DNA of 64,000 bases from Candidatus Rariloculaceae bacterium (GTDB taxonomy: Bacteria > Pseudomonadota > Gammaproteobacteria > Steroidobacterales > Rariloculaceae): NCBI GenBank assembly GCA_965205045.1, contig OZ242031.1, positions 4,572,044-4,636,043 of the forward strand, in the 5' to 3' direction. Positions within the stretch are counted from its first letter, which is position 1. Each line of letters starts with the position of its first letter. Below, one piece after another: positions 10,786-42,681 of the stretch. The position numbers and the translations under genes are program-made. Under the pieces are notes generated by a model, which worked only from the letters and a program-made list of their open reading frames with translations, did no database searches and was not told the DNA's origin.

Positions 10786-10952
10786 AGGTTTGCTCGCACT
10801 ACGCTGATGCCCCCATTCTAGCCGCGCATGCCGTACCGCATCTATACCGAATCAGTTGCCTTGGCTATCTGGGAGAAACAACACCGCGCTGGACAATCCG
10901 GGGGCTTCCCTCGGGGACCGCATGCCGAGTGCGGTCGATGAGATAGCGAGCG

Positions 10953-12580: not shown

Positions 12581-12617
12581 CCGGCCGGCGGGGGAGTCGC
12601 GGCCCCCCGCCGGCCGG
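12581..12617 (-). terminator. GC-rich hairpin immediately 3-prime of the small secreted-protein gene
   Basis: Perfect 14-bp arms: ccggccggcggggg (12581..12594) and cccccgccggccgg (12604..12617). The hairpin lies 2 nt after the stop. No clear U-tract, so terminator function is uncertain. Confidence 0.4.
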
Positions 12618-23905: not shown

Positions 23906-24658
23906 CTAAGCGGCGAGTGATCCACCTCCTCTGGCTTTCATTTTACGCATGGATTCCCCTTCCAGCGCGATTCGATAGGCATTGTGCACGAGCCGGTCGA
24001 GGATCGCATCGGCGTGGGTGGGTTCTCCGATCATCTTGTGCCAGTGTTCAATGGGCAACTGGCTGGTCACCAGCGTGGAGCGCCGCTCGTGCCGATCCTC
24101 GAGGATCTCCAGCAGTTCACGGCGCTGGGGCGCTGTGAGCTTGGCCAGACCCCAGTCGTCCAAAATGATGACGTCGGTCCGGGCGAGCTTTTTCATGACC
24201 TTCGGATAGCGGCCGTCGCCGTGCGCATAACCCAGTTCATCGAAGAGCCTGGAGAGGCGGCGGTACTGCACGGTGAAGCCGTCGCGGCAGGCCTTGTTGC
24301 CCAACGCGCAGGCGATCCATGACTTGCCCGTGCCGGTCGGCCCGGTGATCAGCAGGTTGAGCTTCTTCCTGATCCATTGCCCGGTGATGAGCCGCGTCAT
24401 CAGGGCCTTGTCCAGGCCCCGGGGGTGCCGGTAATCCAGATCTTCGACGACGGCGGAGTAGCGCAGCCGCGCGATGCGAAGCCGGTACTTCAGCCGCCGC
24501 TCGGCGCGGAAGGCGGCCTCGTGATCGAGCAACAGCCCGAGCCGTTCCTCGAAGCTCAACGCCTCGATCTCGCTCATGTCCTGCTGCTCCATCAGCGCCG
24601 TTCGCATGCCGGTCAGGCGCAGCTCGGCGAGTTTGTCGATGGTGGGGTGATACAACAT
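23906..24658 (-). CDS. istB: IS21 helper ATPase IstB
   Basis: 250 aa. Walker A: LLITGPTGTGKSW. Walker B: VIILDDWG. Typical IstB N-terminus: KLAELRLTGM. Confidence 0.95.
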   Translation of the reverse strand: MLYHPTIDKLAELRLTGMRTALMEQQDMSEIEALSFEERLGLLLDHEAAFRAERRLKYRLRIARLRYSAVVEDLDYRHPRGLDKALMTRLITGQWIRKKLNLLITGPTGTGKSWIACALGNKACRDGFTVQYRRLSRLFDELGYAHGDGRYPKVMKKLARTDVIILDDWGLAKLTAPQRRELLEILEDRHERRSTLVTSQLPIEHWHKMIGEPTHADAILDRLVHNAYRIALEGESMRKMKARGGGSLAA

Positions 24659-24676: not shown

Positions 24677-26215
24677 TTACTTGAAGTAGCCCGGCCCCCT
24701 GAGATTGTGGTGGTCGATGTTCGGCAGTTCCGGGGTGCGCGGCGGCAGCGGTTTGCGGTCCAGCCCGTTCTTCAGGATCGCCGCCACACTCTTGTAGGAG
24801 TACGATCCCAGCGCGATCGCCCGCCGGCAGGCGGCCTCCAGGCGATTCTCGGTGTAGCGTTCGCCGAGCCGCATGATGCCCAGGCAGCTTCGGAAGCCCT
24901 GTTCGGGATGCGGCCTTGCGGCCATGATGCGCTCGACCAGCGCCGCGGTGGACGCACCGACCTGGCCCGCCCAGCGGATGAGCCGCTGCGGCGTCCATTC
25001 GGCCTGGGCGCGATGCCCCCGCGGCATGTGCGCGGTCACGGTGGTGTGCCCGCCGCGGCGGCGCGAACGCAGGTGACTGGCCACGCGCCGGCCCTTGTGC
25101 AGCAGTTCCACGGTGTTCGCGGTGATCCGGGCCTGAAGCTGTTCCTTGATCAACTGGTAAGGCACCGAGTAGTAATGCCGCTCGATCTCCACGTGGTAAT
25201 CCATGTGCACGCGCACCGTTTTCCACTCGGCGTATTCGTAGGGCCGCGGCGGCAACGGGCGCATCGCCGGACGGTCCAGCGTCTCGAACAGCTCCCGCCG
25301 GCACGTGGGCAACTTCTGGAACGGCCGCGCATTGAGCGGCTTGAGCAACTCCCCGATGGCCTCGTTCAGATCGGACAGGCAAAACACCTGCAGGTGCCGC
25401 AGCCGCGCCAGGATCCAGCGCTCCACCAACAACACGCCCGCCTCGGCTTTCGCCTTGTCCCTGGGTTTTTTCGGCCTGGCAGGCAAGATGGCAACCCCGT
25501 AGTGCTCGCCCATCCCCCGGTACGTGCGGTTCAGCCGCGGCTCGTATCGATGCGCCTTGTTCACGCCGCTCTTCAGGTTGTCCGGCACCACGATCTCCGG
25601 CACCGCCCCGAAGTACTCGAACGTGCGCACGTGCGAACCGATCCAGTCCTCCATGGACTGCGACCAGGTCGCCTCCGCGTAGGTGTAGCTGGAGGCGCCC
25701 AGCACGGCCACGAAGACCTGGGCCTCGCGGACCTCGCCCGTGCGCCGGTCGATCACCCCGGCCGTCTGCCCGGCGTAATCCACGAACAGCTTCTCCCCGG
25801 CCCGGTGATCCTGGCGCATCACCACGTCCAGACGCCCGCGCCACTTCTTGTAGTGACGGCAGAAGGTCGCGTATTCGTAGCCGTCCGGATGCGCCGCCTT
25901 GTACTCGTCCCACAGCACCAGCAGCGTCATGCCCTTGCGCTTCATCTCCCGGTTCACCGCCAACCAATCGGGTTGCGGGCGCGGCACGCTCGGCGCCGGC
26001 GGCGGCGGGAACAACCGCCGTTCCAGCTCCGCGTCGTCCAGCTCCGCCGGCAACGGCCAGGACAGCCCGCAGCCTTCGGCCCGCTCGATATACCTCAACA
26101 CCGTCGGGTGGCTCAGACCGCTGCTGCGCGCGATCCGGCGCACGCTCAGCCCCAACTCCCACTTCAAACGCAATATTTCCCTGACTCGTCGCATGGCGAT
26201 TCTGGACCTCGGCAT
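24677..26215 (-). CDS. istA: IS21 transposase IstA
   Basis: N-terminal HTH: MRRVREILRLKWELGLSVRRIARSSGLSHPTVLRY. DDE core: VDYAGQT...AILPARPKKPRDKAKAE. The ORF extends to 26263, so the start is uncertain. Confidence 0.95.
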   Translation of the reverse strand: MPRSRIAMRRVREILRLKWELGLSVRRIARSSGLSHPTVLRYIERAEGCGLSWPLPAELDDAELERRLFPPPPAPSVPRPQPDWLAVNREMKRKGMTLLVLWDEYKAAHPDGYEYATFCRHYKKWRGRLDVVMRQDHRAGEKLFVDYAGQTAGVIDRRTGEVREAQVFVAVLGASSYTYAEATWSQSMEDWIGSHVRTFEYFGAVPEIVVPDNLKSGVNKAHRYEPRLNRTYRGMGEHYGVAILPARPKKPRDKAKAEAGVLLVERWILARLRHLQVFCLSDLNEAIGELLKPLNARPFQKLPTCRRELFETLDRPAMRPLPPRPYEYAEWKTVRVHMDYHVEIERHYYSVPYQLIKEQLQARITANTVELLHKGRRVASHLRSRRRGGHTTVTAHMPRGHRAQAEWTPQRLIRWAGQVGASTAALVERIMAARPHPEQGFRSCLGIMRLGERYTENRLEAACRRAIALGSYSYKSVAAILKNGLDRKPLPPRTPELPNIDHHNLRGPGYFK

Positions 26216-26404
26216 CTGCCTGCCTCCTCTGTTGGAAAACAGGCAGCCTATGGGGTCCGGCATCCACGCCGCGGACGCGCCAGAGAGCGGTACTTTTCAG
26301 CGAGTTTGGGCGGTAACTTTCAGCGAGAATCGCCGGTACATTTGAACGAGAATCGGTGGTACGTTTCGGCGAGATTCACCGGTACATTTGGCTGAGAATA
26401 CGCA

Positions 26405-26609
26405 TGTAACTGGGTCGATCGCACGGCGTGCCGGTGAATTACGCGGAAATTTTCGCTCTGCTGGCCAGACTCGCACCCAGGCCGACATGCTCATAGCCGC
26501 AACGGCGCAGGCGCACCAACTTACACTGGCGACACGCAACGTGCGTGATTTCGAAAATTGCGGTATCGCGCTTCTCAATCCTTTCGACCTGGTGGGGCAT
26601 CAAAGGTGA
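26405..26609 (+). pseudogene. vapC: vapC C-terminal fragment
   Basis: Removing the IS and one TGTAAC copy joins ...ETLPVT to GSIARRAGELRG...DMLIAATAQAHQLTLATRNVRDFENCGIALLNPF in frame. Confidence 0.8.
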
Positions 26610-27628: not shown

Positions 27629-30613
27629 TTACCGATCCGCAACGCCCCTTGCGAGCAACTGGTCAAGGCTGGTGGCTACCTCGTATTTGGCGGGGTTCTC
27701 ACGCACCCCCAGCGCTTGGAAATGCTCCTTGCCACACTTGATCTTGTAGGCTTCGGTGAGGCGCAGATCATCCTGCAGCGTGCTGCCTTTCGTCTCGACC
27801 ACGAGATATAGCCGTTCGGCTTCATCGGTGTCGATCAGAACGGCCCAATCGGGGTTGTAGCTCCCGAGCGGCGTGGGAACCTTGAACCAGCCCGGTAGCT
27901 TGGCATAGACCTTGACGGCGGGGTTGTTCTCCAGGTCGTTCGCGAACTTCGCCTCGGTGCCGTGCTCGTAGATGACCTTCTCGTACACCGATCGTTCGGC
28001 GTCGAGCATGTTGCGCAGGTAGCCCGTTAGTTCCTCCTGTTCGAAGAGTTCCTGCGCGTAGCAGGATCGATCACCGATTCGTTGGTACTTGATGCCGTCC
28101 ACCAGGACACGCCGCTTGCACCGGTTGATGATGCTCGCGGCGAGCTCGATAAACTGCTGCGGGTTGCGCTTGAAGTCGTTGAGGCGCTGACTGCCGATCA
28201 GGATTCTGCAAATGCTGCGCCGGGTGAGCTGCGTCCGGTCCTGCAACTCGGTGAGGATATCCGGTAACTCTATTTCCGGCTCATCGAGTACGACCGTAGC
28301 GGCACCTGTGACCTCGCTTGCCTCCACGCCTGCCTGACCGATGGCGATACCCGCCTTTCGCCATTGCAGCCGGGTCCGGGGGATCGGATCCGAGTTTCGC
28401 AGCTCGCCGATCGATCGCTCCAACAGTTCTTCGTTGTCGAAGGTCACGCGATAGGTGGTCTTGTGCTTGATGCGGTCCCACAGGGCCTTGAATTCGGCAC
28501 CCTCGAGCACTGCCTGGCGCGGGCGGACAGCCCGACGCTCGTCGGCGTTCTTGACCTTGAGACGCCCTGAGAGTTTCCTCAGTACGGCGGCGATGTCCGC
28601 CCTCTGGGCGGCAAATTCTTCCGGCAGGTCCAGAGTATCGTCCCGGATCGCCTTTCGGAGAGAGTCCTGTATCCGCCCCTGTGGGTCGATATAGCCTTGC
28701 GACCGCAAGTGCTCGTACAGGGTCTGCGACTGTTCGAATCCGAGGGCTGCCGTTTCTCCCGCATTGACCGCTACCGGAATCTGCGCAAACTGATGCGGTT
28801 CGACAATGCCGAAGCGGATTCCAGTCTCCTCCTCGATCTCGCGTTGAAGGTTTTCGGCAAACTCTTCGTAGCTCTCTCGGGCGATCACCGTGAGCGTATT
28901 CAATTCGAAACCGTGCAATCGTTCGCCGTCCTGATTGACGCAAAGGCGCAGCCCTCGCCCGATCGTCTGCCGGCGTTCGCGCTCGGTCCGGATGTCGCGC
29001 AGGGCGCAGATCTGGAAGACATTGGGGTTGTCCCATCCCTCGCGCAATGCAGAATGAGAGAAGATGAACTTGAGCGGCTCATCGAGGCTGAGCAGCTTCT
29101 CCTTCTCCTTCATGATCAGGTTGTAGGCGCGCTCGGCGTTGTCTCGATTCGTCTGGTTGTTCTCGGCGGTGTCGATCCATCCGCCCTTCTTGTCAATCGA
29201 GAAGTAACCATCGTGAACCTTCTCCGCCGCCGCGGTGAGGTCGGTCTCTCCGAACAGCGGCCGGTAGACGGGGTGGCGCGCAAACTTCCGGTATTCTTCC
29301 TCGAACATGCGGGCATAGTCGCCCTTGACCGCGTTGCCCGCCTCGTCGTAGCTGCGGTAACGCTCCACCGCGTCGATGAAAAAGAGGCTCAGCACCTTGA
29401 TCTCCTGCGGGCGCAGGCGCTTCTCCTTGTCGAGATGCTCGCGAATGGTTCGCCGGATCATTTGTCGCGTAACGGCGGCGGCGTCCACGTCGCCCCAGGC
29501 TTCGCCATCGCTGAGAAAATGCTCGCCTCCCGGCACGCGGAGTTCGACGAACGCGCTTTCCCGTCCGACCCTGATCTCGCCGATGCGGCAGTCTCGGTAG
29601 ACCGGTCGGCCTGTTGTCTGTTCGAGATCGTCGCCATCCATGACGACCCTCTCACCGCGACGCACTCGTCCGGCACTATCCACATCGAGCTCGACCTTCG
29701 CGCTGATGACGCCGCGTCTGTTGCTTGTCGAGAGCAGCCGGACATAGGGGCGGTTGTGGGCGTCCTCGACAGTCGCGGACGCCACCTCGATCTGCTTGAC
29801 GAGCTTGCGCTCGTAGGCATCGACCGCATCCAGCCGGTAGACCATGTGGTGCCTGTCGACGTGCGTTGCCGAGTAACGCAACGTGCAGAGCGGGTTCATC
29901 GCACCCAAGGCTGCCTTGCCCTGTCCCTTGAGGCCGCCGTCCACGCTCTGCGGTTCGTCCACGATCAGGACAGGCCGGGTGGCGCTGATTAGGTCGATGG
30001 GCTTTTCTCCGCCAGTCTTCTCGCTGTCCTTGTAGAGATTGTTGACAGCCTTCTTGTTGATGGCACCCACTGTCACCACCATGATCTGGATTTGCGGGCT
30101 GGTGGCGAAGTTTCGGACCTGGCCGAGTTTCGCCGAATCGTAGAGAAAGTACTCGAACGGCGTGCCAGAATACAGCGCCCGGAAATGATCGTCGGTTATC
30201 TGCAGCGACTTGTAGACGCCTTCCTTTATCGCGACCGACGGGACCACGATGACGAACTTGGTGAATCCGTAGCGCTTGTTCAGCTCGAAGATCGTGCGCA
30301 GGTAGACGTAGGTCTTGCCGGTGCCGGTCTCCATCTCCACTGTGAAGTCGCCGGAGGCCAGGGACCCGGACGGCGGCAGGCCGTTGCGAAGCTGGATGTC
30401 GTTGAGGTTCGCCAGAATCTCTTCGTCCAGCAAGTTCAGCCGGTTGCCGACACCGAGATTGTTGTGCGCAAAGGCAAGCGCTTCCTGCCTATCCGACGGG
30501 CTCCGGGTAACCGTGAACTCCGTGCGGCAGACCTCCTGGCCGTGGAACAGATCGCACACGGCACCCACCGCCTGCAACTGGAAATCGAGGTTGGGATCGA
30601 AGCGGAGCTTCAT
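27629..30613 (-). CDS. res: Type III restriction enzyme Res subunit (helicase plus PD-(D/E)xK nuclease)
   Basis: 994 aa. METGTGKTYVY (motif I), LIVDEPQS (motif II). C-terminal nuclease: YNPDWAVLID...LYLVVETKGS. GGAG lies before the ATG. Confidence 0.9.
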   Translation of the reverse strand: MKLRFDPNLDFQLQAVGAVCDLFHGQEVCRTEFTVTRSPSDRQEALAFAHNNLGVGNRLNLLDEEILANLNDIQLRNGLPPSGSLASGDFTVEMETGTGKTYVYLRTIFELNKRYGFTKFVIVVPSVAIKEGVYKSLQITDDHFRALYSGTPFEYFLYDSAKLGQVRNFATSPQIQIMVVTVGAINKKAVNNLYKDSEKTGGEKPIDLISATRPVLIVDEPQSVDGGLKGQGKAALGAMNPLCTLRYSATHVDRHHMVYRLDAVDAYERKLVKQIEVASATVEDAHNRPYVRLLSTSNRRGVISAKVELDVDSAGRVRRGERVVMDGDDLEQTTGRPVYRDCRIGEIRVGRESAFVELRVPGGEHFLSDGEAWGDVDAAAVTRQMIRRTIREHLDKEKRLRPQEIKVLSLFFIDAVERYRSYDEAGNAVKGDYARMFEEEYRKFARHPVYRPLFGETDLTAAAEKVHDGYFSIDKKGGWIDTAENNQTNRDNAERAYNLIMKEKEKLLSLDEPLKFIFSHSALREGWDNPNVFQICALRDIRTERERRQTIGRGLRLCVNQDGERLHGFELNTLTVIARESYEEFAENLQREIEEETGIRFGIVEPHQFAQIPVAVNAGETAALGFEQSQTLYEHLRSQGYIDPQGRIQDSLRKAIRDDTLDLPEEFAAQRADIAAVLRKLSGRLKVKNADERRAVRPRQAVLEGAEFKALWDRIKHKTTYRVTFDNEELLERSIGELRNSDPIPRTRLQWRKAGIAIGQAGVEASEVTGAATVVLDEPEIELPDILTELQDRTQLTRRSICRILIGSQRLNDFKRNPQQFIELAASIINRCKRRVLVDGIKYQRIGDRSCYAQELFEQEELTGYLRNMLDAERSVYEKVIYEHGTEAKFANDLENNPAVKVYAKLPGWFKVPTPLGSYNPDWAVLIDTDEAERLYLVVETKGSTLQDDLRLTEAYKIKCGKEHFQALGVRENPAKYEVATSLDQLLARGVADR

Positions 30614-31119
30614 TTCTCCATGTCCGCTCTAAGGCGTGCGTTTAGTTCGCCGGGGACGATACGGCCTTGCTCGATCGCTGATGCCAGGAGCGCCTTCACC
30701 CGCGCCTTGCTTATCCTCCGCCAATGTTTCTCCCTGACGGCCGCATCCACCTTTTGAGCCAGCCTCCCAAGGCGTACGTAATCGAGCTGGCAAATGTCAA
30801 CGTGGCGCTCGGCAAGGTCGGCGACGGGCGTTCGTCCCGGCGAGTCCCTGAGCGGGTGTCCATCGGATCGTAGCGCCTCCTCGTCCACCCAGACGATGTC
30901 CACCTTCGCAACGCGCTCCGCCGCCGCTGCAATCGCCAGCACCGCATCCTCGATGTCAGCGACCGCGCCAGCGTGGCATCTCCAAAACGACAGGGCATCC
31001 TGCCGGGTGCGCAGATCGCCAGTCACCGCGTCCGCTGAAATTTCGCCCCTCGACAAGCCACGCGATAAATTGCGGTCATCGTCCCACTTCGAGCGGGAAA
31101 ACTTCCGGGCAAGAAACAC
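30610..31119 (-). CDS. Hypothetical 169-aa protein, translationally coupled to res
   Basis: GTG 31119 lies 9 nt after the upstream stop. Its own stop overlaps the res ATG (ATGA at 30610..30613). N-terminus: ...SRSKWDDD...ISADAVTGDLRTRQDALSFW. No family recognised. Confidence 0.6.
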   Translation of the reverse strand: MFLARKFSRSKWDDDRNLSRGLSRGEISADAVTGDLRTRQDALSFWRCHAGAVADIEDAVLAIAAAAERVAKVDIVWVDEEALRSDGHPLRDSPGRTPVADLAERHVDICQLDYVRLGRLAQKVDAAVREKHWRRISKARVKALLASAIEQGRIVPGELNARLRADMEK

Positions 31120-31128
31120 GACGGGCGC

Positions 31129-31836
31129 CTACTCGCCGAGATCTTCCAGGACATCTTTAATGTAATCGCGGAGCCACGATACCTTTTCGGTATGGCAACG
31201 AAGTACGTCCTGGACCTCCGTGTCGCCCCATTCCTCCGCAGCCTGCACGGCTGCGTCCCTCATCTCGACATCGTTGGATGCAAGCGCATCTCGCGCAATC
31301 CGAGCTCGCCATGCCGACGTTGCGGGCCGGCGACGGCCAAGGCAGCGTAGAACCGAGGCCGCAATGCCCGGTTGCTCTACATCAATGGCCAGTCCGCGTA
31401 GCCATGAAAGTGCATCATGACTATTGAGCGAAAGCAATGCGTCGTCGATTATCTGCTCCGCTGGATGAGTGATACCATCTTCAACAGGTTCCGATTCCAG
31501 GGCAATTCTCAATCTGGTTTCAAACGATCTCGGGTCAAGGGCCAAGCCGGGGTCCAGGTCCGCAAAAAAGGTTCTGTCAACGACGGCTGGAAAAATCGTC
31601 TCTCCCAGCAAAGCAACAATCGCTGTTCCATCCGCCACATCAACCAACTCTTGCCCTAACTCGAGGAACAGGACCCTGAGGCGGGCTTGTTCCGGCGACG
31701 CTCCCAGCGACTCCCTACCGCTTGGCAAGACGGCCATTCTCTTGTAAGGCACGCTACGGCGTTCAAAACGAGAAATTGAATTGCCATGAATCATCGACGG
31801 CGACCGCGACTCTATTTTCCTGGCTTCAAGCGGCAT
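31129..31836 (-). CDS. Hypothetical 235-aa protein with a HEAT/PBS-lyase-like C-terminal repeat
   Basis: ATG 31836 overlaps the TIGR04255-like gene by 11 nt. C-terminus: ARDALASNDVEMRDAAVQAAEEWGDTEVQDVL. Alternative starts at 31794 and 31737. Confidence 0.55.
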   Translation of the reverse strand: MPLEARKIESRSPSMIHGNSISRFERRSVPYKRMAVLPSGRESLGASPEQARLRVLFLELGQELVDVADGTAIVALLGETIFPAVVDRTFFADLDPGLALDPRSFETRLRIALESEPVEDGITHPAEQIIDDALLSLNSHDALSWLRGLAIDVEQPGIAASVLRCLGRRRPATSAWRARIARDALASNDVEMRDAAVQAAEEWGDTEVQDVLRCHTEKVSWLRDYIKDVLEDLGE

Positions 31837-32596
31837 CGAAAATCCTCCTGGCCTTGTCCGTTACAATTGCTTCGAATGCGGAACCAACTCGTTCGTGAAG
31901 AGCATCGGCCAAGACCGACGCCTGCTCCGAGCCGATTGGTGGTTCCTCGTCTCTTATGGCATCCAGATCGAGGAGACACTCCACGCCGCTCTCCGAAGCG
32001 CCAAGTAGTCCGTACGATACGACCAGTCGTGCTGCATCGTCATATATGTATTCCACCCGGCTGAGGAAATTCGAATAGTCCTCTGGTAGCCCTTCGACCT
32101 TCATGTGTGCACAGTTGAGATACTCTTCGATCTCCACGTTTTGCCCAGGAATCAATATTCGATTGATGTATCGCACCCCAACACGACTGATCGCGCTTCC
32201 TTCGACGATCTTCAAGTAGGCTTCCAGCGCATCCATGATGCGGGGCCTGAACTCCTTCCAACCGCCTCGTTCAATATGTTCAGCGCTTTGGTACGGGCGC
32301 AGCATATGGATGCTGAGCACATTCGGGCCGATGCCGACCAGTCGGTTTCCGTCTTCGGTCACGAGTTGGACCTTTGCCACCCCCTCTTCGTAACTCAGGT
32401 TGGCTGGCTGCCCATCCTTGACGCTGAGTTCGACTTGCAACGCCTTCTGCTCTCTCGACTTGCCGGAATATTCGTTTCCGAGAGCTGCTTGAAGCTTTCC
32501 CGGAATGGTGAAGTCCCAATCCGACCCTGGCACAAATCGAAACTCACAGAACGCTTCCTGTATGGGAGGGCTCCTGTACCTTTTGCGCTGGTTCAT
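31826..32596 (-). CDS. TIGR04255-family uncharacterised protein
   Basis: N-terminus YRSPPIQEAFCEFRFVPGSDWDFTIPGKL and length (256 aa) fit my recollection of TIGR04255. Confidence 0.7.
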   Translation of the reverse strand: MNQRKRYRSPPIQEAFCEFRFVPGSDWDFTIPGKLQAALGNEYSGKSREQKALQVELSVKDGQPANLSYEEGVAKVQLVTEDGNRLVGIGPNVLSIHMLRPYQSAEHIERGGWKEFRPRIMDALEAYLKIVEGSAISRVGVRYINRILIPGQNVEIEEYLNCAHMKVEGLPEDYSNFLSRVEYIYDDAARLVVSYGLLGASESGVECLLDLDAIRDEEPPIGSEQASVLADALHERVGSAFEAIVTDKARRIFDAA

Positions 32597-32697
32597 TGTC
32601 TGCTTTCTCGAGTTGGGTTTCTGTCTACAGGCCCGTTACAGGGACCACTTAACTCCTGCAATCGGAAATCGAGGTCGAGTTTGAAGCGGAGTTTCAT
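32593..32697 (-). pseudogene. Fossil res 5-prime end, now a 34-codon leader ORF overlapping the TIGR04255-like start
   Basis: 32655..32697 matches res 30571..30613 at 36 of 43 nt (hand count). Peptides: MKLRFKLDLDFRLQ versus MKLRFDPNLDFQLQ. Its TGA overlaps ATG 32596 (ATGA). Confidence 0.6.
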
Positions 32698-32740: not shown

Positions 32741-32953
32741 TCATGCGTACATCAGGCGCTCGCCCTTCGGCTGGGGAATTGGATCGCCAAATTCCCCAGC
32801 CGTGTCGATCCAGAGTTGCATTGCCTCGTTGACATTTTTCAGCGCATCGTTCTGGCTGTCGCAGTGGGCCACGCAACCCGGAAGCTCCGGCACTTCGGCA
32901 ATAAAGGCCGAGTCCTCGTTGCTCCAGTACAGGATGATCTCGTACTTGTACAT
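32741..32953 (-). CDS. hicB: HicB-family antitoxin (UPF0150-type)
   Basis: MYKYEIILYWSNEDSAFIAEVPELPGCVAHCDSQNDALKNVNEAMQLWIDTAGEFGDPIPQP. Confidence 0.75.
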   Translation of the reverse strand: MYKYEIILYWSNEDSAFIAEVPELPGCVAHCDSQNDALKNVNEAMQLWIDTAGEFGDPIPQPKGERLMYA

Positions 32954-33082
32954 CAACGTTACCTTCCCTATTGATATTTCAGGAAAATCCGACGAAGCTG
33001 CTTGACCTGTTTCGGAAAAGCGAATGTTGGCATCCGACCTTCCGCCGAGGATGGTCTGCAACAGACGCTCATGGCGATTCAT
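32954..33082 (-). pseudogene. hicA: Truncated hicA toxin remnant, fused in frame to the hicB upstream region
   Basis: MNRHERLLQTILGGRSDANIRFSE resembles the first 25 or so residues of the HicA variant MNSKxRKTLxAIFxDPVxAxIxWxDIE. The rest of the toxin is missing. Confidence 0.4.
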
Positions 33083-33108: not shown

Positions 33109-35091
33109 TCACAGGCTTCGGACGTTGCCGAGACCGCGCTGCTTGAGGATCTCTGTGAGGTTTGTCTTGGCGACATCGTCGGTGAAGGCGCTGTCGCGAA
33201 ACACGACGGTGGAGTCACCCGCCGGCGCGAGCGCATCATGCCAATTGGCGATGCCCTCCGCCAGCGGCTCCGCTTCGTCGCGGGAGATTGCTTCGTCGAG
33301 GCAGGCAATCAAAGTGCCAGCGCCGACTGAGTGCACGGACTTATCCAAGATGGATCGCGTTTCGATGGGAACGCAGAGATCCAAGCCTTGTTTCAGGAGG
33401 ATTTCATAGAGGATGTCCTGCTCGGTCCGTCCCAGCTCGATATGGTCGAGATCGGAAAGCAGTGCGCCTTCCAGATCGCTTGGCGTCGGGTCCCAAGCCC
33501 GGATGTTCGAAGTATCGAGCTTGAAGACGCGGAAGCCGAGATCACCATGGTAATTGGGATTTTCGTCCCTGATCTTTCTTGTGGCGCGGCGAAGTCTCTC
33601 TTTTGTGAGTGCGGCAATGTTTCGCGGCATTCCAAGTTGGTCGCAAAACTCAACAGCAGATCGATGACTTTTGTTGCGCGGGCTAAGCCGTTCCGGTAAC
33701 TGCACAGAAATATGCCTTCTGGCCCCTCCGTCAATAGAATTCTGAGCCATTACGGCGTGTGCGGTAGTGCCCGAACCAGAGAAAAAATCCAATACGACAT
33801 CATCCGGCTTAGTTGTTATGAATACGCATCGACGCAACAATTCGACTGGTTTAGGATGATCGAATACCCCGCCCATACCCAAACGTCCGAGCTCCTTGGT
33901 TCCCTGTTCGCTGATAAACTCTGTATCAAGCCAAATCGATTTGGGTTTGGTCGTGTTCTTTCTCGATTTTTGATAGACATTCCATTTTCCATCGCGAAGC
34001 TTACGCGCAACCAATACAGGAGAATTATCCTTCAAGGAGAGGCTCGATATTTTTTCTTTACTCCAACGCCAACAGCCATCCTCTCCCTTGCTGTTCTTTG
34101 GGTATACCGCAATAGAATCAGAGTCATTCGTCAGAGAAACCTTGGAGTAGCCACATTCATCCAGTGAATCCTCTCTTGCGTATATTGGAAAAAAAAGATT
34201 CGGCCTATTATGTCGACCAAACTTTGGGTTTCTGTTACGCAATTCCCATAAGTCGAATGAACCGAGAGAATCCTGATAAGGAAGCGAACTATTTCCCTTC
34301 TCCAATTCATTAAGGCCAATACCTTCATCTTTCGAGTAGATCACCAAGAATTCATGTGTTTTGGCGATCTGCTTGTAAGTCTGTCCTCGCTTATTGGATT
34401 GGACAATAATTTGTGCTTGAAATTGTTCTTCGCCAAAAATTTCATCCAATACTTTGCGAATATTGGATACTTCCGTATCATCAATTGAAACTGCAATTAG
34501 CCCATCGACCGTCAAGAGGTTTCGTGCAACTTTGAGTCGAGGATAAATCATACTTAGCCAGTCCGTATGGAATCGGCCTGATGCTTCTGGATTGGATGTT
34601 ACGACGTGGGTGTTCTCATCTATCTGACCTGTGATCGCAAGATAGTTCTTTACGTTGCTACGATAATCGTCCGGATAAATAAAGTCCTTGCCAGTGTTGT
34701 AGGGAGGGTCGATATAGATCAGTTTCACCTTGCCGGCGTAGCTCTTTTGAAGGAGCTTCAGCACTTCCAGGTTGTCGCCTTCTATCATCAGGTTTTGCGT
34801 CGAATTCCAATCTATGCTTTCCTCGGGGCAGGGACGCAGAGTGCCGGTTGACGGTGTGAGCGCGAGTTTCCGCGCACGGCGTTTGCCATGCCAGTTGAGG
34901 CCATACTTCTCCTCTCCTTCGTCGACCGAATCTCCGAGAAGCTGTCGGAGCACGTCGAAATCCACTTTTCCCTCAGTGAATGCTTCGGGGAGCAGACCTT
35001 TCAGTTGTTCAAGGTTGTCGGCGACGATATCCGCCGAGTGCGTTTCCGGGTCGCCGGCGACGATCCTTTCCATAGTGTGCGTCTCTTTCAC
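33109..35091 (-). CDS. mod: Type III-like Mod DNA methyltransferase (beta-class amino-methyltransferase)
   Basis: KLIYIDPPYNTGKDF (motif IV) precedes VLDFFSGSGTTAHAV (motif I). GTG 35091 overlaps the DUF4391 stop; alternative ATG at 35073. Confidence 0.9.
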   Translation of the reverse strand: MKETHTMERIVAGDPETHSADIVADNLEQLKGLLPEAFTEGKVDFDVLRQLLGDSVDEGEEKYGLNWHGKRRARKLALTPSTGTLRPCPEESIDWNSTQNLMIEGDNLEVLKLLQKSYAGKVKLIYIDPPYNTGKDFIYPDDYRSNVKNYLAITGQIDENTHVVTSNPEASGRFHTDWLSMIYPRLKVARNLLTVDGLIAVSIDDTEVSNIRKVLDEIFGEEQFQAQIIVQSNKRGQTYKQIAKTHEFLVIYSKDEGIGLNELEKGNSSLPYQDSLGSFDLWELRNRNPKFGRHNRPNLFFPIYAREDSLDECGYSKVSLTNDSDSIAVYPKNSKGEDGCWRWSKEKISSLSLKDNSPVLVARKLRDGKWNVYQKSRKNTTKPKSIWLDTEFISEQGTKELGRLGMGGVFDHPKPVELLRRCVFITTKPDDVVLDFFSGSGTTAHAVMAQNSIDGGARRHISVQLPERLSPRNKSHRSAVEFCDQLGMPRNIAALTKERLRRATRKIRDENPNYHGDLGFRVFKLDTSNIRAWDPTPSDLEGALLSDLDHIELGRTEQDILYEILLKQGLDLCVPIETRSILDKSVHSVGAGTLIACLDEAISRDEAEPLAEGIANWHDALAPAGDSTVVFRDSAFTDDVAKTNLTEILKQRGLGNVRSL

Positions 35092-35846
35092 AGTCTAGCC
35101 CGCGCCGCGTCCCGGCCGACGCGCAACCGCGCCAGCTCAATATTCATTTCGGCTCGACGGGCCATCTGTTTCTCCTTGCTTGCGGCGGAGTATACATTCG
35201 CGATCCTCTCGCTGAGATACCTGTATTCCCGTAATGCTGCCTCCTTTTCGGAGGCAGCGGCCGCCGTGGGCGGAAGGCGAAAGCCGCCCGTAATCGTGGC
35301 AGCTTGGAGCGCCTGGACCGTAGCGATCCACCCCCGATACAAATCCCGGAGCGTCCCGCGCGGTTGCCTCACTAGGGCAAGGGCGTCGCGAAACGCTGCC
35401 AATGACTCGCCCGGGCAGTCACCGCTGACCCGCGTGGAGACGATCTCACCGTCGATCACGATCTTGTGGGATTCTCCCAGCGAATGGCGCTTGTGGGCCA
35501 GCGAGAGTCCCGGCGTTCCTTCACTCCATGCGATCAGGAGCACCGGATACGGGATGGAACGGTGAATCAATTCGACAAGACGCTCGCTACGTGCGGCGGG
35601 ACGCAGCACGAGCTTCAGAATAGTAATCTCATGGTACTCTCGGTCGGCGTCACGGTATTCGGCAACGCCGACGGTGGCCGGTTTGAGCGCCGCGAGCCAC
35701 CGTAATTCCTCGATACCCTCCCCGATGCGCCGCCGGTCGCCCGCTGCGAAGGTGCCGTTCTCGATGAGCAGAGTCTTGGGAACGCGGCGGTCGACGAGCG
35801 CATCAGCTGGGAGCGCGAGCGCCTCGAAGGGATCGAATGGTGTCAC
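35088..35846 (-). CDS. DUF4391-domain protein
   Basis: RRVPKTLLIENG...IEELRWLAALKPATVGV...YHEITILKLVLR...IHRSIPYPVLLIAW...LSLAHKR fits the DUF4391 pattern as I recall it. GTG start overlaps the helicase stop (GTGA). Confidence 0.7.
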   Translation of the reverse strand: MTPFDPFEALALPADALVDRRVPKTLLIENGTFAAGDRRRIGEGIEELRWLAALKPATVGVAEYRDADREYHEITILKLVLRPAARSERLVELIHRSIPYPVLLIAWSEGTPGLSLAHKRHSLGESHKIVIDGEIVSTRVSGDCPGESLAAFRDALALVRQPRGTLRDLYRGWIATVQALQAATITGGFRLPPTAAAASEKEAALREYRYLSERIANVYSAASKEKQMARRAEMNIELARLRVGRDAARARL

Positions 35847-38701
35847 GACGCTACTCCCGCGAGCACGACGAGAAACGCCACCACCTCAAAGTCGTCCATT
35901 CCGGCGAACTCGCCAGACAAGGCGTGAGTGCCTCCGGGTGAGAAGAGGCTGGCGATGGCGCGCTCCTCACCCTTTCCGACGATGGCAGAAATGGCAGCGG
36001 CAAGCTGACGTTGCACGGCGTGCATTTCCTTCCCCTGGCGGGTGGCCGCGTCGAAATGGCGACAGGCCGAAGCATCAGGTATGTCCTTGCCGACACAAAG
36101 CCGCTTGAGGCGATCGAGAATGGCCTTGGCCTGGATGAACGGCAGCAAAACCGACCCATCCTCACCAACATGGACCAGATAGTGCGGCGCCAGCGGATAG
36201 CCCGGCTGAAACCGGGCATCCGCAGCGGTGCCCTCGGCACGCAGACAGAAGATCACGCCCGGTGGAACGTCGTCGTCTGCCGCAATGGCGATCGCGTGCA
36301 TACCGAGCGGGACCGATTCCAGCGCTTCCGGGTCGGCCCTGCGATAGTCGGCCAGGTCGATCCGAAAATCGGTCAGCGTCAGATCGGCGATGGAGACGCC
36401 CGATGACAAGTCCTCCAGATCGATCACCGCGTCCAAAAGCTTCAGGAGATGCTTGCGTCGGTACGCCAGATCATTCATTGGATCGCCGGACTGCTGCTCG
36501 ATCAGGTTTTCCTCGCCGGTGGCGGAAATATCCAGAAGCACCATGCGCCCGCTCACGCGCTGCTCCAGCCGAAGATATTCCTCCAGTTCCATGTTTGGCC
36601 AAAAGTTGACGAGTTGGATCCGCTCGTTGGGCGAGCCGATGCGGTCGATGCGCCCGAAGCGCTGGATGATGCGCACCGGATTCCAGTGAATGTCGTAGTT
36701 GATGAGCCAGTCGCAGTCCTGCAGGTTCTGACCTTCCGAGATGCAGTCCGTCGCGATCAGAAGATCGATCTCGCCTTCGCTCGCCAGATCGTCCGGACAC
36801 TCCTTGGTTCGAGGCGCGAAGGCGGTAAGGATGGACGCAAGGTCGCGCCGCAGGTCGGGCAATGTCGTCCGATTGCCCCCCGTGCCGGTGACCAAGGCGG
36901 CTTGCACCCCCAGGGAATCCCGCGCCCAGGGCGCCAGCGCGTCGTACAGGTAACGCGCGGTGTCGGCGAAGGCCGTGAACACGATGATCTTTCGGTTCCC
37001 GACGTTGATTGGCTCGCGGCATTTCCGCTCGATCATCGCCCGCAGCTCGGCCAGCTTCGCATCGCGTTCAGCGGTCACCTTGCGGGCTGCGGCGTGCAGC
37101 GTTGCCAGCCGGTCGCGGTCTTCGATCAGGTCCTGGCGCCAACGAACCGGATCGACGTCCTGGAGCAGAACCTTGACCTTGCGGCCGACCAGAAGGCTCT
37201 CAAAGGTCGGATCCTCGATATCGATGTCAGCGATATCGAACTCTTCGAGGTCGGCTTCTTGTGCCTCGATACGCGCAAGCAGGACCTCGATGTCATTGAG
37301 CTGACGCTGCACGGTCAGCGCGAAGGAGGCGACCGAGCTTTCCATGCGCTTCGGCACGTTCGCGCGCAGGAGGTGAACCAAGCTCTCCTCGCGGTCCAGT
37401 TGCCGGAACGTCCCGCCTCCGCGGCGAAGTCGGGTGCTGTATTTCTTGTCATACGCTTCTTGCCTGTGCGCCAATACATAGCGCAGCGGTGCGTACTCGG
37501 TGGCGAATGCAATCTGGTTACGCAGATCCGCCAGCCGATTGTTCACGGGCGTCGCCGTCAGCATGAGGACCCGGGTCTTCACGCCTTCACGCACGATGCG
37601 GCGCATCAGCCGGTCGTAGCGCGTTTCGCTGCCCTGCCGGGGTGATCGCTTGTTGCGGAAGTTATGCGACTCGTCAATGACGACGAGATCGTAGTTGCCC
37701 CAGTTCAAATGGGCCAGGTCGATATCGCCCGACAGGCCGCGGTCGCGCGACAGGTCGGTGTGATTGAGCACATCGTAGTTGAAGCGGTCGCGCGCCAGGA
37801 TGTTGCGGCGGTCGTTGGCGCGGTACAGGGTCCAGTTGTCGCGGAGCCGCTTGGGACAGAGCACCAGAACGCGGTCGTTGCGTAGTTCGTGGTACTTGAT
37901 GATGGCCAACGCCTCGAAGGTTTTTCCGAGCCCAACGCTGTCGGCAATGATGCAACCGCCAAACCGGTCGAGCTTGTCAATCGCACCGACGACTCCGTCG
38001 CGTTGGAAACGGTAGAGTCTCTGCCAGACCTCGGTTTCGCGAATCCCGGTTGCAGATTTGACTACCCGGTCTTCATCGAGTTCGCCACCCTCGATACGAA
38101 ACAGGTGGTGCAGGATCAGCGCGTAGATGCTGGACGGAGCGCGATGTTCGGCAAGGCGACGCAACGTGTCAATTGTCAGCAACTTCGCAGTGTCGTCGCC
38201 CGCCAATCCGGACCACTGCGAATCGAACCATACCCCTAGCCGCTTACATTCTTCGGGCGTTTCGGACGCCTGAATCAAGTTGAGTGGATTGCCGGGTGCG
38301 AGGCCGAGCCCGTCGGTGCTGAACGAGAACGAACCGATCAGAGCCTGTCTCGTGCGACCATCTCCGTTCCGCAGCACGATCGCGCCCTGTGGGACCGCTC
38401 CGTTTGCTTTGCGCACCTCCGCCGATTTCTCGACCCAGTCCGCGCATTGGCCCGCCAGCCAGCGGGTCTGCAGGCGATTACGGGCGGCGCGATCCGCATC
38501 GGTTCCCAGAAGGTCGAGTTCGGCTGCTTCGGGAGGCAGGACGAGTCGCGCACCGGCCATTTTCGCCAATTGTCCGGCAAGCTCTCCAAACGCAAAAAGC
38601 GACAGCGTTCGGGACGCGAGATCGACCCGATTGCCGGTCCCTAGCCAGGGCCGGACGATGTCGACCACGCGGTCGGCGCCGGTATTGGGAACGATCCTCA
38701 T
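35843..38701 (-). CDS. SNF2-family helicase with N- and C-terminal extensions
   Basis: ADSVGLGKTFEA (motif I), LVVIDESHNFRN (motif II), MLTATPVNN (motif III), QRFGRIDRIGS (motif VI). ATG 38701 forms an ATGA overlap with the upstream small ORF. The track ORF starts at 38719. Confidence 0.9.
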   Translation of the reverse strand: MRIVPNTGADRVVDIVRPWLGTGNRVDLASRTLSLFAFGELAGQLAKMAGARLVLPPEAAELDLLGTDADRAARNRLQTRWLAGQCADWVEKSAEVRKANGAVPQGAIVLRNGDGRTRQALIGSFSFSTDGLGLAPGNPLNLIQASETPEECKRLGVWFDSQWSGLAGDDTAKLLTIDTLRRLAEHRAPSSIYALILHHLFRIEGGELDEDRVVKSATGIRETEVWQRLYRFQRDGVVGAIDKLDRFGGCIIADSVGLGKTFEALAIIKYHELRNDRVLVLCPKRLRDNWTLYRANDRRNILARDRFNYDVLNHTDLSRDRGLSGDIDLAHLNWGNYDLVVIDESHNFRNKRSPRQGSETRYDRLMRRIVREGVKTRVLMLTATPVNNRLADLRNQIAFATEYAPLRYVLAHRQEAYDKKYSTRLRRGGGTFRQLDREESLVHLLRANVPKRMESSVASFALTVQRQLNDIEVLLARIEAQEADLEEFDIADIDIEDPTFESLLVGRKVKVLLQDVDPVRWRQDLIEDRDRLATLHAAARKVTAERDAKLAELRAMIERKCREPINVGNRKIIVFTAFADTARYLYDALAPWARDSLGVQAALVTGTGGNRTTLPDLRRDLASILTAFAPRTKECPDDLASEGEIDLLIATDCISEGQNLQDCDWLINYDIHWNPVRIIQRFGRIDRIGSPNERIQLVNFWPNMELEEYLRLEQRVSGRMVLLDISATGEENLIEQQSGDPMNDLAYRRKHLLKLLDAVIDLEDLSSGVSIADLTLTDFRIDLADYRRADPEALESVPLGMHAIAIAADDDVPPGVIFCLRAEGTAADARFQPGYPLAPHYLVHVGEDGSVLLPFIQAKAILDRLKRLCVGKDIPDASACRHFDAATRQGKEMHAVQRQLAAAISAIVGKGEERAIASLFSPGGTHALSGEFAGMDDFEVVAFLVVLAGVAS

Positions 38702-38955
38702 CGTGGCCCGGCGGTCCATCGGTTCAGGGTGGCGACACCGGAGTTGCGGCGTTCGTCGGTACTCTGCGTTACTACTGCAACCCTGTGGCTGGCCGCTGCC
38801 GCACGAATGGCATCTGGCAAGCGATCATCGAGCAGTTCGCCACGCCGGTGGTTTTCCCCCATGATCTGCGCACGTTCCCGGCTGTCAGCCAAGACCCACC
38901 CGACTATCCGGCCCACGAACGGATCGTCGAGATTGCGGGTCGTGATGCCGGCCAT
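38698..38955 (-). CDS. Possible 85-aa leader gene of the helicase operon
   Basis: Acidic/basic protein-like composition. Its stop overlaps the helicase ATG (ATGA at 38698..38701). No family recognised. Confidence 0.3.
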   Translation of the reverse strand: MAGITTRNLDDPFVGRIVGWVLADSRERAQIMGENHRRGELLDDRLPDAIRAAAASHRVAVVTQSTDERRNSGVATLNRWTAGPR

Positions 38956-40460: not shown

Positions 40461-41505
40461 TTCTTGGGCCTCGGCCAAGACCTCCGCCGCCCGACAGCTA
40501 ACCGGCAACCGGTGCTCGCGCCCCGCCACATCCCGTTTCGGCAGGGTCGGCGTAGTCCCGCAGCGACGCCTCCGATTTCGCGTTACGCTAACGTGGGGTC
40601 CCACAAATCCAAGCGCATTTCCGTTACGTGAAAGATTGTTATAACCTTCTGATTTATTTATGTTTTCTATGCGTGTGATCGCACGTAATTTCTCAGATAC
40701 TTACGGGACAGGACACTAGGTCGCACGGTGCAGATTTATCACCGCGGCACCCTATCCGTTCCATCATCTTGCCGCGCTTCCTTCATTGGGTCTAAAATTA
40801 CAAATGGCTTTCTTACCCTTGGGTTATTACAGTCAAATGAATTCTGAGGCCCAACATCCCCAGCAGGCACCCTAAGCCCCATCGCTCTGGTTAACAATTT
40901 CAGGGATTCACTCCGAGAAATGGAGACTATCACTTCAACGCCGACACCAAAATTCGATGCGCGCCGCGTGCGCCCACTGAAGTATTCCGCACGAGACGTT
41001 CAAAGTCCTGCAGAAGCAAAGCAACAAATTCCAAAACAATTTCACCGATGGCGAGAACCTCTTCTCCATCGTGTTCGCTCAATTGCTGATCATTGGCCGT
41101 TCTTGTCGACATCAGACGACAGCCATTTGTTCTGCTGGCCCGCGCAGCTAGGCTTGGTGCTCTCTTTTTCTCGCGGACAAACTCCGAAACCTGTTCGTGC
41201 ACCTCTTTGTACCCTTCCGAAATATCCTCCAAAACTCTATAGACTTCGGCTCTCGCGCCACAGTCGAGGGGTACATCACCGCCTGAAAGCGCGACGCCAT
41301 CGCAGGTGCGAGTTTTTTGATGCTTCGCGGGAGAAAACGGCCACACGCCTCATCCAGAGCCACGCACGAGGAAACCGCATCTCCCGTCGTTGCCCTTATC
41401 TCAGTGACCAACGTCAACCTTGGCCGACTGCAGATTCAAATCCCATTTGCCCAAATTGCACCAGCAATTTCCACACAATCAAGCTTATTTGTACTGAGGA
41501 GCACA

Positions 41506-42681
41506 ATGCGTTACTTGGCTCGACTTAAGGATGATCCAGCAACCTCCGCATTGGCATTCGCTGACGCCCGCGTTGACGCAACAAACCGTGTACTGCAGGT
41601 TGATAAGATCTCAAAATTTCAGCAAAGCGTCGACTCCCGAGGGCAAATGGCTGATCGACTGCGGGAACATGACATGTCCTTCGTTGCCCATCCGATTGCG
41701 CAAACCCCGATCAGTGGCATCGCGGTCGTCGATGGAACCCATGAGGCAGTATCGGAGCTGGGAATTTCGTTTCCCGAATACGAAATCATCGCCGACGCAC
41801 CCATTTCTCTCATCAGCCCAGAACAAACCGACACACATCTCACGTCCGACGACACCCTCGACCTTTGGCATTTGGACAAAGTTTTCGCTAGCAGTAATCG
41901 CGAGGACGACGGTGGTGAGGATGTGAGGGTGGCTGTGCTAGACACTGGTGTTAGTAACGTGCCGGAGATCGTCGGCCGAATATCCGGCCATCAGGCTTTG
42001 GACGTTAACAATTGGCAGGTCTCAACAACCACACAAGGCGATACCCACGGTCATGGTACGCACGTTAGCGGCTTGATTTGTGGGGAACGTGTAGGCATCG
42101 CCCCAGGCGCCCAAGTTGAGAGCGTCACGATGATCCCCAACGGCACGGGAAACATGAGCAACTTTATATTGGCGATGGAATGGGTGGGCGCGCAGCCGGA
42201 AGTATCGATTCTCAACATGTCAGCGGGCATTGTCGGCTACAGGCCCGGGATGCTTTACATTATCGAAATACTTCAGCGTCTTGGCGTGCTCACGGTGATC
42301 GCCACTGGAAATGAAGGTGTACACCAAACTCGCAGTCCAGGCAACTACAGCTCACCGATTTCCGTCGGCGCCAGCACGAAAGAAGACAAGATAGCCTCCT
42401 TCAGCAGTGGCGCCGACATGACGATCGACGGCGTCAATTACACGGTGCCTGACTTAGTCGCGCCTGGCAAGGAGGTTACATCATGCCTCATGAATGGAGG
42501 ATATGCCGCGTGGAACGGTACATCCATGGCCACTCCAGTTGTGGCAGGCATTGCTGCACTCCATATCCACCACAATCCACAGATTCCAGTGTTGGATCTA
42601 CGCGAAAAAATTCTGAACTCTTGCCGGGACCTTGGGTTCCGAGCAAACCGGCAAGGAGTCGGATTGATCCAAGTCCGATAA
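41506..42681 (+). CDS. S8-family (subtilisin-like) serine peptidase, no signal peptide
   Basis: GAGGA lies 6 nt before ATG 41506. Catalytic triad context: VAVLDTGV, HGHGTHVSG, NGTSMATPVVAG. N-terminus MRYLARLKDDPATS is not hydrophobic. Confidence 0.85.
   Translation: MRYLARLKDDPATSALAFADARVDATNRVLQVDKISKFQQSVDSRGQMADRLREHDMSFVAHPIAQTPISGIAVVDGTHEAVSELGISFPEYEIIADAPISLISPEQTDTHLTSDDTLDLWHLDKVFASSNREDDGGEDVRVAVLDTGVSNVPEIVGRISGHQALDVNNWQVSTTTQGDTHGHGTHVSGLICGERVGIAPGAQVESVTMIPNGTGNMSNFILAMEWVGAQPEVSILNMSAGIVGYRPGMLYIIEILQRLGVLTVIATGNEGVHQTRSPGNYSSPISVGASTKEDKIASFSSGADMTIDGVNYTVPDLVAPGKEVTSCLMNGGYAAWNGTSMATPVVAGIAALHIHHNPQIPVLDLREKILNSCRDLGFRANRQGVGLIQVR

Follow-up and report, generated by a model that had tools for sequence, protein, structure and literature searches.

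Why does a type III restriction-modification (RM) operon carry three additional genes between its methyltransferase gene and its endonuclease gene? In the DNA analyzed here, a stretch of 64,000 nucleotides (nt) from Candidatus Rariloculaceae bacterium (contig OZ242031.1, positions 4,572,044 to 4,636,043 of the forward strand; hereafter the window), mod and res are separated by a cassette of three same-strand open reading frames (ORFs), which we call A, B, and C. An original prediction, drawn from the letters of this locus, offered two readings of the triad: an accessory sensor or regulator of restriction, or an independent second-line defence module riding in the operon. It named recurrence of the triad in other genomes as a test and proposed profile and structure searches and a comparison with the closest mod-res loci that lack the cassette; homologues in housekeeping contexts, or a place in an already named system, would speak against it. 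Our analysis indicates that A-B-C is best explained as one of many alternative cargo modules found at the mod-res junction of this RM family.

The Cassette and Its Junctions

Both flanking genes clearly belong to a type III system. The product of mod (33109..35091, minus strand) matches the PADLOC profile MTase_III with 699 bits and carries the Pfam domain N6_N4_Mtase, while that of res (27629..30613, minus strand) matches REase_III with 1320 bits and combines a helicase and an endonuclease (Pfam ResIII and RE_endonuc). Between them, on the same strand, lie A (31826..32596), which encodes a 256-amino-acid (aa) protein of the TIGR04255 family; B (31129..31836), whose 235-aa product has a HEAT-like C-terminal domain; and C (30610..31119), which starts with GTG and encodes 169 aa. 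All three ORFs stand at the coordinates first given for them. A, B, and C each have more than 200 homologues, and their pairwise ratios of nonsynonymous to synonymous substitution (dN/dS) are 0.18, 0.27, and 0.22, respectively. So many homologues, together with purifying selection, mark A, B, and C as real genes and not chance ORFs.

The physical chaining described in the original prediction is likewise present in the sequence. A and B overlap by 11 nt, C starts 9 nt after the B stop, and the C stop overlaps the res ATG as ATGA at 30610-30613. Ahead of A, a 34-codon ORF (32593..32697, minus strand) ends in the same fashion, its stop overlapping the A ATG as ATGA at 32593-32596. It had further been suggested that ribosomes reach res largely by translating the cassette. 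Reading the sequence, we located Shine-Dalgarno-like motifs ahead of both B (AGGAGG, 7 nt before the ATG) and res (GGAG, 4 nt before the ATG), and translation of res therefore need not rely on coupling alone; the chaining is real, but as the relatives described below illustrate it is generic to this site. A scan for promoters and terminators returned sites no more numerous than those in shuffled sequence. Most likely, the cassette shares a transcript with the operon and is linked to res by translational chaining, yet forms no part of the restriction enzyme.

Recurrence of B-C with and without A

We scanned one genome per species with a profile of C, which yielded 80 loci distributed over more than ten phyla and including Binatia, Latescibacterota, Dehalococcoidia, Spirochaetia, Rhodothermales, Gammaproteobacteria, Gemmatimonadota, Nitrospirales, a Synechococcus, and others. 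In every one of these loci a B homologue lies directly upstream of C and ends 6-13 nt before the C start. The first gene is facultative: a full-length A precedes B in 48 of the 80 loci, is frameshifted in 2, and is absent from 30, and in pairwise comparisons B and C are under equal constraint without it (dN/dS of 0.22 for B and 0.24 for C in loci that lack A). The recurrence named as a test was thus found, with B and C adjacent throughout and A present in more than half of the loci.

Approximately 85% of the 80 loci have no mod or res nearby, and the gene order SNF2-DUF4391-mod-(A)-B-C-res occurs in only six of them, plus the window and one further locus (L166). The flanking genes are otherwise very diverse and include ThiC, ABC transporter, aldo-keto reductase, and aconitase genes, AAA_14/DUF4143 ATPases, Eco57I-type methylases, and XRE regulators. 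Housekeeping surroundings, which had been named as grounds for doubt, do occur: ThiC, ABC transporter, or HisG genes stand beside many loci. Five Dehalococcoidia loci (L018, L036, L037, L041, and L029; about 1600-12600) place the cassette in an operon different from the SNF2-DUF4391 type, in which ResIII-NYN-MTase is followed by a first gene of either the TIGR04255 or the c17 family, then by B-C and a UvrD-like helicase. The N6_N4 methyltransferase of this operon has 934 aa, and the cassette comes directly after it.

Remnants of RM genes were detected beside cassettes that have no RM partner. With a hidden Markov model (HMM) built from the last 50 Mod residues, we identified Mod-end scraps in nine RM-less loci, ending 35-55 nt before the A ATG, whereas the reverse-complement control for this HMM gave no match. 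Scraps of the res start, 10-120 nt long, come after the C stop in about a dozen RM-less loci, and the ATGA overlap is often kept there. In a rough neighbour-joining tree of C, RM-embedded cassettes are spread over at least five clades. Much of the cassette family appears to have had its ancestral home at the mod-res junction, and the cassette appears either to outlive the RM genes around it or to move with short flanks of variable length. Because the flanking scraps vary in length, illegitimate or homologous recombination is a better fit than site-specific movement. By this evidence, the association with type III RM is old and not obligatory, and B-C evidently constitutes the invariant core of a cassette that is both autonomous and mobile.

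Insertion Scars in the Window Operon

The 34-codon ORF ahead of A, which the original prediction took for a short leader, exists and overlaps A as described, but it is no dedicated leader. Its first ~50 nt duplicate the start of res: the segment 32646..32697 (minus strand) is a 52-nt direct repeat of 30562-30613, 79% identical to it and 2084 nt away, and it provides the start of the ORF; the two copies encode the peptides MKLRFKLDLDFRLQ vs MKLRFDPNLDFQLQ. A regulatory leader peptide is ruled out by this origin as a 5' remnant of res. Directly after the res duplicate lies a second scar (32625..32648, minus strand), a scrap of ~24 nt from the 3' end of a donor mod (..GNVRSL-stop, with a 5-nt deletion), recognized by alignment with the 3' ends of mod in the window and in loci L070, L044, L059, and L001. 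A 28-nt spacer then leads to the A ATG.

The nearest relative of the window operon, L081, supplied the proposed comparison with a cassette-free locus. Its Res is 89% identical to that of the window over the N-terminal 300 aa, and its operon is the same one without the cassette, ordered SNF2-DUF4391-mod-hicA-hicB-res. In the alignment, the window remains homologous to L081 up to and including the initial ~50 nt of res, beyond which the similarity ends. Between mod and the scars, the window retains a HicB-like ORF of 113 aa (32741..33082, minus strand; Pfam HicB_lk_antitox, 1.9e-9), a degenerate hicAB that represents older cargo of the mod-res junction. Both hicA and hicB are intact in the L081 sister locus, whereas in the window a 125-nt deletion joins the opening 24 codons of hicA to an intact hicB; the window ORF thus keeps the HicB domain with hicA mostly deleted.

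The res-5' duplicate and the mod-3' scrap together indicate that the cassette recombined in from another type III operon. In the simplest history, DNA of a donor mod-A-B-C-res operon would have recombined into the resident operon by one crossover inside res and by one illegitimate joint, which would have fused the resident res at nucleotide ~50 with the final ~25 nt of the donor mod. The outcome would be the arrangement seen ahead of A, with a res-5' duplicate, now read as the leader ORF, followed by the mod-3' scrap. Judged from these alignments, the cassette is evidently an insertion in the window operon.

Cargo at the mod-res Junction of Related Operons

Using the N-terminal 300 residues of Res as the query, we scanned metagenome contigs and took the closest 80 relatives (L081-L160), which are 78-89% identical; the junction statistics refer to the 74 of these that cover the 3' end of mod as well as the start of res. 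In 36 of the 74, mod and res abut with a gap of 8-14 nt. The gap in the other 38 measures 85-3458 nt, and gaps of at least 250 nt are mostly, indeed nearly always, filled with same-strand ORFs. Pfam confirmed a broad range of cargo: RhuM (10 loci), YhcG/DUF1016 nucleases (3 loci), 23S_rRNA_IVP four-helix proteins, PLD-like proteins, HicA (with HicB), DarT together with a macrodomain protein (DarTG), and an AAA ATPase with an S8 protease (an IetAS-like pair). Fic-, Doc-, and DUF262-like proteins and AAA+DUF4276-like proteins were judged to be present from sequence alone.

In 20 of the 31 cargo-bearing relatives, the final cargo gene ends with a stop codon that shares nucleotides with the res ATG, whatever the cargo, and this ATGA overlap is common to RhuM, YhcG, IVP, PLD-like, Doc-like, and other unrelated genes. 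Cargo-free operons keep the 8-14-nt spacer between mod and res, whereas many quite dissimilar cargo genes meet res at one and the same 3' junction.

A, B, and C were found in none of the 80 closest RM relatives, and so in 0 of the 74 with a complete junction, which sets them apart from an integral subunit of a type III enzyme. As a general role, the proposed accessory sensor or regulator of restriction is not supported by this comparison: no relative has the cassette, in half of them mod and res abut, and in the others the junction is occupied by unrelated cargo. On this showing, the SNF2-DUF4391-Mod-Res family has a clear cargo hotspot at its mod-res junction.

Protein A and the TIGR04255 Family

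A is a bona fide member of TIGR04255, as had been proposed, with a score of 123 bits against a cutoff of 30 (E = 1.8e-35) over model positions 1-251 of 252 of the NCBIfam HMM. NCBIfam describes the family as "sporadically distributed" and its function as unknown. The AlphaFold2 model of A (predicted local distance difference test, pLDDT, 85.4) contains two beta-sheet/helix repeats. A Foldseek search of the model against the PDB gave no match at E ≤ 0.001, only TBP-like and Bet v1-like folds with template-modelling (TM) scores below 0.3, and literature searches on TIGR04255, DUF4391, and the plasmid protein accessions returned nothing relevant.

On plasmids of Crinalium and Rhizobium, a distant TIGR04255 gene has two hypothetical genes of similar size downstream of it; its counterpart on a Thermus plasmid precedes one hypothetical gene and an unannotated gap. 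Unlike those of the cassette, these downstream genes are marginally or not detectable as B or C homologues. The TIGR04255-led three-gene operon of Rhizobium plasmid pCB3060_2 (L170, 1171-6153) adjoins a multiubiquitin/ThiF-E1/DUF6527 set and also lies beside an IS110 transposase and a queC-like gene, surroundings that look like a defence-island neighbourhood. The Thermus copy comes after a DNA methylase and a VapBC pair.

Protein B and the Exchangeable First Slot

In the alignment of B homologues, a C-terminal helical HEAT-like domain of ~130 aa (residues ~105-235) is conserved, and the N-terminal extension ahead of it is poorly conserved. The HEAT/PBS-lyase-like C-terminus that had been ascribed to B holds up in part: the conserved helical domain is present, and a repeat-like motif (DVE.RDAAVQAAE.WG) is visible in the alignment, but the Pfam HEAT_2 match stays below threshold, at 17.5 bits vs a cutoff of 27.7 over the single repeat-length stretch 183-213, and PF13646 is carried by just 1 of 120 B homologues among the matches listed. 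A resemblance of B to the HEAT/PBS-lyase repeat proteins is plausible, at a score that falls short of membership.

The length of B goes with the gene ahead of it. B ORFs encode 230-327 aa when preceded by a gene of ~225-280 aa, and mostly 143-185 aa when they are not. Some short B proteins begin with the N-terminal motif of TIGR04255, which points to A::B deletion fusions. Where the first gene is not TIGR04255, it encodes a member of the c17 family (six loci) or one of the proteins seen in L080, L161/163, L164, and L167. Searches with hhalign, hmmsearch, and phmmer detected no relationship of these proteins to TIGR04255 or to each other, which gives at least five families, and the idea that they are diverged TIGR04255 members found no support in any of the three. 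The first slot is evidently exchangeable, holding a TIGR04255 protein, an unrelated protein of ~225-280 aa, or nothing, and B seems to be an adaptor.

One locus, L017 (5144-7740), carries an orphan short B of 158 aa (6132-6608) that has no adjoining C. It is flanked by proteins of 214 aa and 335 aa, the latter DUF488-like by eye, and a complete A-B-C cassette lies 2 kb downstream of it.

Protein C

C belongs to phrog_10743, a PHROG of no known function (E = 1.1e-27, 98 bits, residues 2-160). Among 1.8 billion representative proteins, its family comprises 2407 clusters at 50% identity (E ≤ 1e-3), nearly all of them stand-alone proteins of 163-180 aa. Longer members were considered as informative domain fusions and rejected as frameshifts, gene-call artefacts, or low-complexity tails. 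With window C as the tblastn query, phage and plasmid collections gave no match, and such matches were retrieved only with a more distant prophage C; a collection of E. coli genomes gave no match either.

The AlphaFold2 model of C (pLDDT 94.3) has an alpha/beta fold with six strands. Foldseek found no PDB structure with E < 0.01 (best E-value 0.16), the highest TM score being that of Tpt1 (0.33), with DarT at 0.27, and no match in BFVD. We accordingly dropped an ADP-ribosyltransferase identity for C, as the fold matches to Tpt1 and DarT are insignificant. In the alignment, the polar residues K11, D30, T33, T38, S44, and H106 are invariant and D108 and R116 nearly so, and the invariant polar residues could form an active site.

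Distant Versions on Mobile Elements

Triads that resemble the cassette also occur on phages and plasmids. In IMG/VR prophage contigs, the genes after an integrase encode a protein of 245 aa and then B-like (hhalign 92%, E = 6e-7) and C-like proteins, with an AlpA-like gene next. The temperate Acinetobacter phages Ab105-1phi and AbTJ carry a triad of 226, 215, and 197 aa after the lysis genes. A Klebsiella ColRNAI (ColE1) plasmid of 4375 bp (NZ_OW968434.1) has an operon for proteins of 229, 199, and 173 aa as its only cargo, and its C-like protein scores 97.9% in hhalign (E = 4.8e-13). A 5-kb Enterobacter plasmid bears a two-gene version. Searches of these mobile-element versions against Pfam, NCBIfam, and PADLOC returned no significant match, the only PADLOC matches being two isolated, insignificant ones (E about 0.01-0.02) that correspond to no named system.

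The Remainder of the Operon and Its Surroundings

Two further genes of the operon lie upstream of mod. The product of the first (35088..35846, minus strand) belongs to Pfam DUF4391 (6.1e-58), and that of the second (35843..38719, minus strand) is an SNF2-family helicase with the Pfam domains SNF2-rel_dom and Helicase_C. Both are conserved partners in the SNF2-DUF4391-Mod-Res family of type III RM systems, and a DUF4391 gene stands upstream of mod in most of the relatives among L081-L160 whose contigs reach that far.

BLASTP comparison with L081 revealed a 113-aa in-frame internal deletion in the window SNF2 helicase, which corresponds to homologue residues 409-521 and directly follows the ..LADLRNQIAFATE segment. 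The missing residues are present in every related locus that covers this region, and the deletion may impair the function of the helicase. Within mod, the GC content falls to 0.40-0.49 at window positions 33500-34500, compared with ~0.60 across the remaining operon, and tblastn identity to relatives is lowest over the same interval. A low-GC, low-identity middle of mod is consistent with a swapped target-recognition domain.

Just downstream of res lies an IS21-family insertion sequence (IS) element, with IstA at 24677-26263 and IstB at 23906-24658 (both minus strand). It abuts a 73-aa C-terminal fragment of a PIN/VapC protein (26388-26609, plus strand), an arrangement which suggests that a vapC gene was interrupted by the IS element. 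On the other side, a subtilase gene (41317-42681, plus strand; Peptidase_S8, 3.3e-41) lies ~2.6 kb beyond the SNF2 gene, and the ORFs between the two match no Pfam family. The island may extend beyond the RM operon.

Discussion

What might such a cargo module do? We favour the view that A-B-C is an autonomous, horizontally mobile cargo cassette whose function is most likely that of a toxin-antitoxin (TA)-like or abortive-infection conflict module, and we give this view a probability of roughly 55%. C would be the candidate effector and B its bound neutraliser or adaptor, while the protein of the first slot would dock on the N-terminal extension of B as a swappable input, or sensor. Within an RM operon, the cassette could then act as a second defence layer, an addiction module, or both. 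That genes embedded in RM operons provide further layers of defence is an established idea for PrrC, RhuM, and Doc (PMC3710099). A defence or TA function is inferred here from the company kept in the hotspot, from carriage on mobile elements, from the fact that C never occurs without B, and from the orphan B of L017. B-C has the layout of a type II TA system, that is, two small, tightly spaced, co-directional genes that co-occurred in every locus surveyed. Of the original prediction's second reading, the independence of the module is thus well grounded in B-C adjacency, RM-less occurrence, and mobile carriage, and second-line defence is the part drawn from context.

Several observations weigh against this assignment. 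The cassette proteins contain no recognizable toxin, nuclease, NTPase, or DNA-binding antitoxin domain, and the known toxin fold and DNA-binding or neutralising antitoxin of type II TA systems are thus absent from B-C; the roles given above to A, B, and C are guesses. Neither B nor C has a significant family match in Pfam, NCBIfam, or PADLOC, the PDB yielded nothing for A, B, or C by sequence or profile search, and the Foldseek matches of C are all insignificant. The middle gene of the plasmid and phage triads is only weakly homologous to B (E about 1e-3). Many loci are flanked by housekeeping genes (ThiC, ABC transporter, HisG), and the link to type III mod is recurrent and apparently ancestral, as judged from the mod-3' and res-5' scraps and from the ResIII-NYN-MTase operon. 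In some lineages, or in RM-embedded copies, a PrrC-like functional tie to Mod and Res is conceivable.

The proposed profile and structure searches had a mixed yield: families for A (TIGR04255) and C (phrog_10743), and no PDB fold match for the models of A and C. They also leave the cassette outside any already named system, as the original prediction required. Window A, B, and C have no match at all in PADLOC-DB v2.0.0 (2023), and PADLOC-DB, Pfam, and PDB searches explain neither B nor C.

A more specific proposal would go considerably further. B-C with its swappable first slot might represent an undescribed and widespread anti-phage family, with an effector of new fold, an origin in and preference for the mod-res junction, and a role as backup when restriction is evaded or inhibited, the first-slot proteins being the components that sense phage. 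We regard this combination as a tentative one, with odds well short of even.

Among the explanations that compete with a conflict module of this kind, a purely selfish addiction module survives best, although we think it unlikely. Such a module would act by post-segregational killing, confer no phage protection, and simply hitch-hike in RM operons and mobile elements. The tight two-gene core that always stays together would suit it, as would survival after loss of the surrounding RM genes and, on a small multicopy plasmid, the absence of any other cargo; an orphan B is what one expects of an antitoxin, and a decayed hicAB lies next door in the window. It is harder to square with the domain content just described and with the first slot, since a swappable protein of ~250 aa with a dN/dS of 0.18 is unusual for a simple TA system and looks more like a component for sensing or specificity. 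The TA and defence readings are, in any case, not mutually exclusive.

More doubtful is an RM-dependent guard or regulator, a triad that monitors or tunes the type III enzyme in the style of PrrC and EcoprrI, firing when restriction is blocked or else delaying or limiting Res. PrrC provides a precedent (PMC3710099), and the genomic association is substantial: the cassette lies between mod and res in at least eight genomes from at least five separate clades of the C tree, the scraps beside many RM-less cassettes make the junction look ancestral, the Dehalococcoidia copies directly follow a different N6_N4 methyltransferase, and stop-start overlaps chain the cassette to res. Most loci, however, lack RM genes and keep B and C equally constrained, the 4.4-kb plasmid, phage, and prophage versions have no RM partner, and none of the 74 closest RM relatives needs the cassette, 36 of them having nothing between mod and res. 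Nor is the chaining specific, given that ATGA overlaps are common to unrelated cargo and that res has its own GGAG site. A, B, and C also contain no PrrC-like combination of ABC-ATPase and HEPN domains.

We consider it improbable that the cassette primarily serves mobile elements, through anti-defence, superinfection exclusion, or lysogeny control, and that chromosomal and RM-embedded copies are captured remnants. The PHROG match of C and the triads at moron positions in temperate phages and beside prophage integrases are compatible with this idea. Most copies are nevertheless chromosomal and outside recognizable prophages, the window cassette runs in the direction of a host restriction gene and is chained to it, and an anti-restriction module within an RM operon would defeat itself; superinfection exclusion, for its part, is itself a form of defence. 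An ordinary metabolic or regulatory function unrelated to genetic conflict is very improbable, because the several loci flanked by ThiC, HisG, or ABC transporter genes are set against a patchy phylum distribution shaped by horizontal transfer, unrelated flanks, carriage on plasmids, phages, and prophages, insertion scars, and a hotspot whose other occupants are toxins and defence genes.

If A-B-C is indeed a defence or TA module, it would add three uncharacterised protein families to the repertoire, B and C being without a Pfam entry and no function having been assigned to TIGR04255 since the family was set up. The module is widespread and experimentally accessible, as a 4.4-kb Klebsiella ColE1 plasmid carries the triad as its only cargo, and the exchangeable first slot offers a natural handle on which component senses and which executes. 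The mod-res junction could be searched for additional systems in the way that type I hsd loci and prophage hotspots have been, and the scars left in it reveal how cargo moves, by recombination through conserved RM flanks.

Comparison with Known Systems

The cassette invites comparison with PrrC of the EcoprrI type Ic RM locus, and with RloC, in that an extra module is co-expressed within an RM operon and proposed as a second line of defence; relatives of PrrC likewise occur without RM genes and in prophages (PMC3710099). PrrC differs in being a single ABC-ATPase/HEPN protein that cleaves tRNA and is silenced by the RM enzyme, whereas the cassette consists of three proteins and is RM-less in ~85% of loci, an occurrence which argues against obligate PrrC-like dependence on RM. 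Closer in position are the RhuM, Fic/Doc, HicAB, DarTG, and IetAS-like cargos, which occupy the same junction on the same strand and mostly overlap the res ATG in the same way. These belong to named toxin or defence families, of which A-B-C matches none.

With type II and tripartite TA systems, the cassette shares small, tight, co-directional genes, carriage on plasmids and prophages, and persistence after neighbouring genes have decayed. It differs in lacking a known toxin or antitoxin fold and in its first-slot gene, which is large and exchangeable between unrelated families. Finally, the distant triads that lie between an integrase and an AlpA-like gene, or after lysis genes, resemble the contents of defence hotspots on mobile elements. 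The window site differs from such hotspots in being located inside a type III RM operon, where the cassette apparently moves through the conserved mod and res flanks and not by an element-encoded recombinase.

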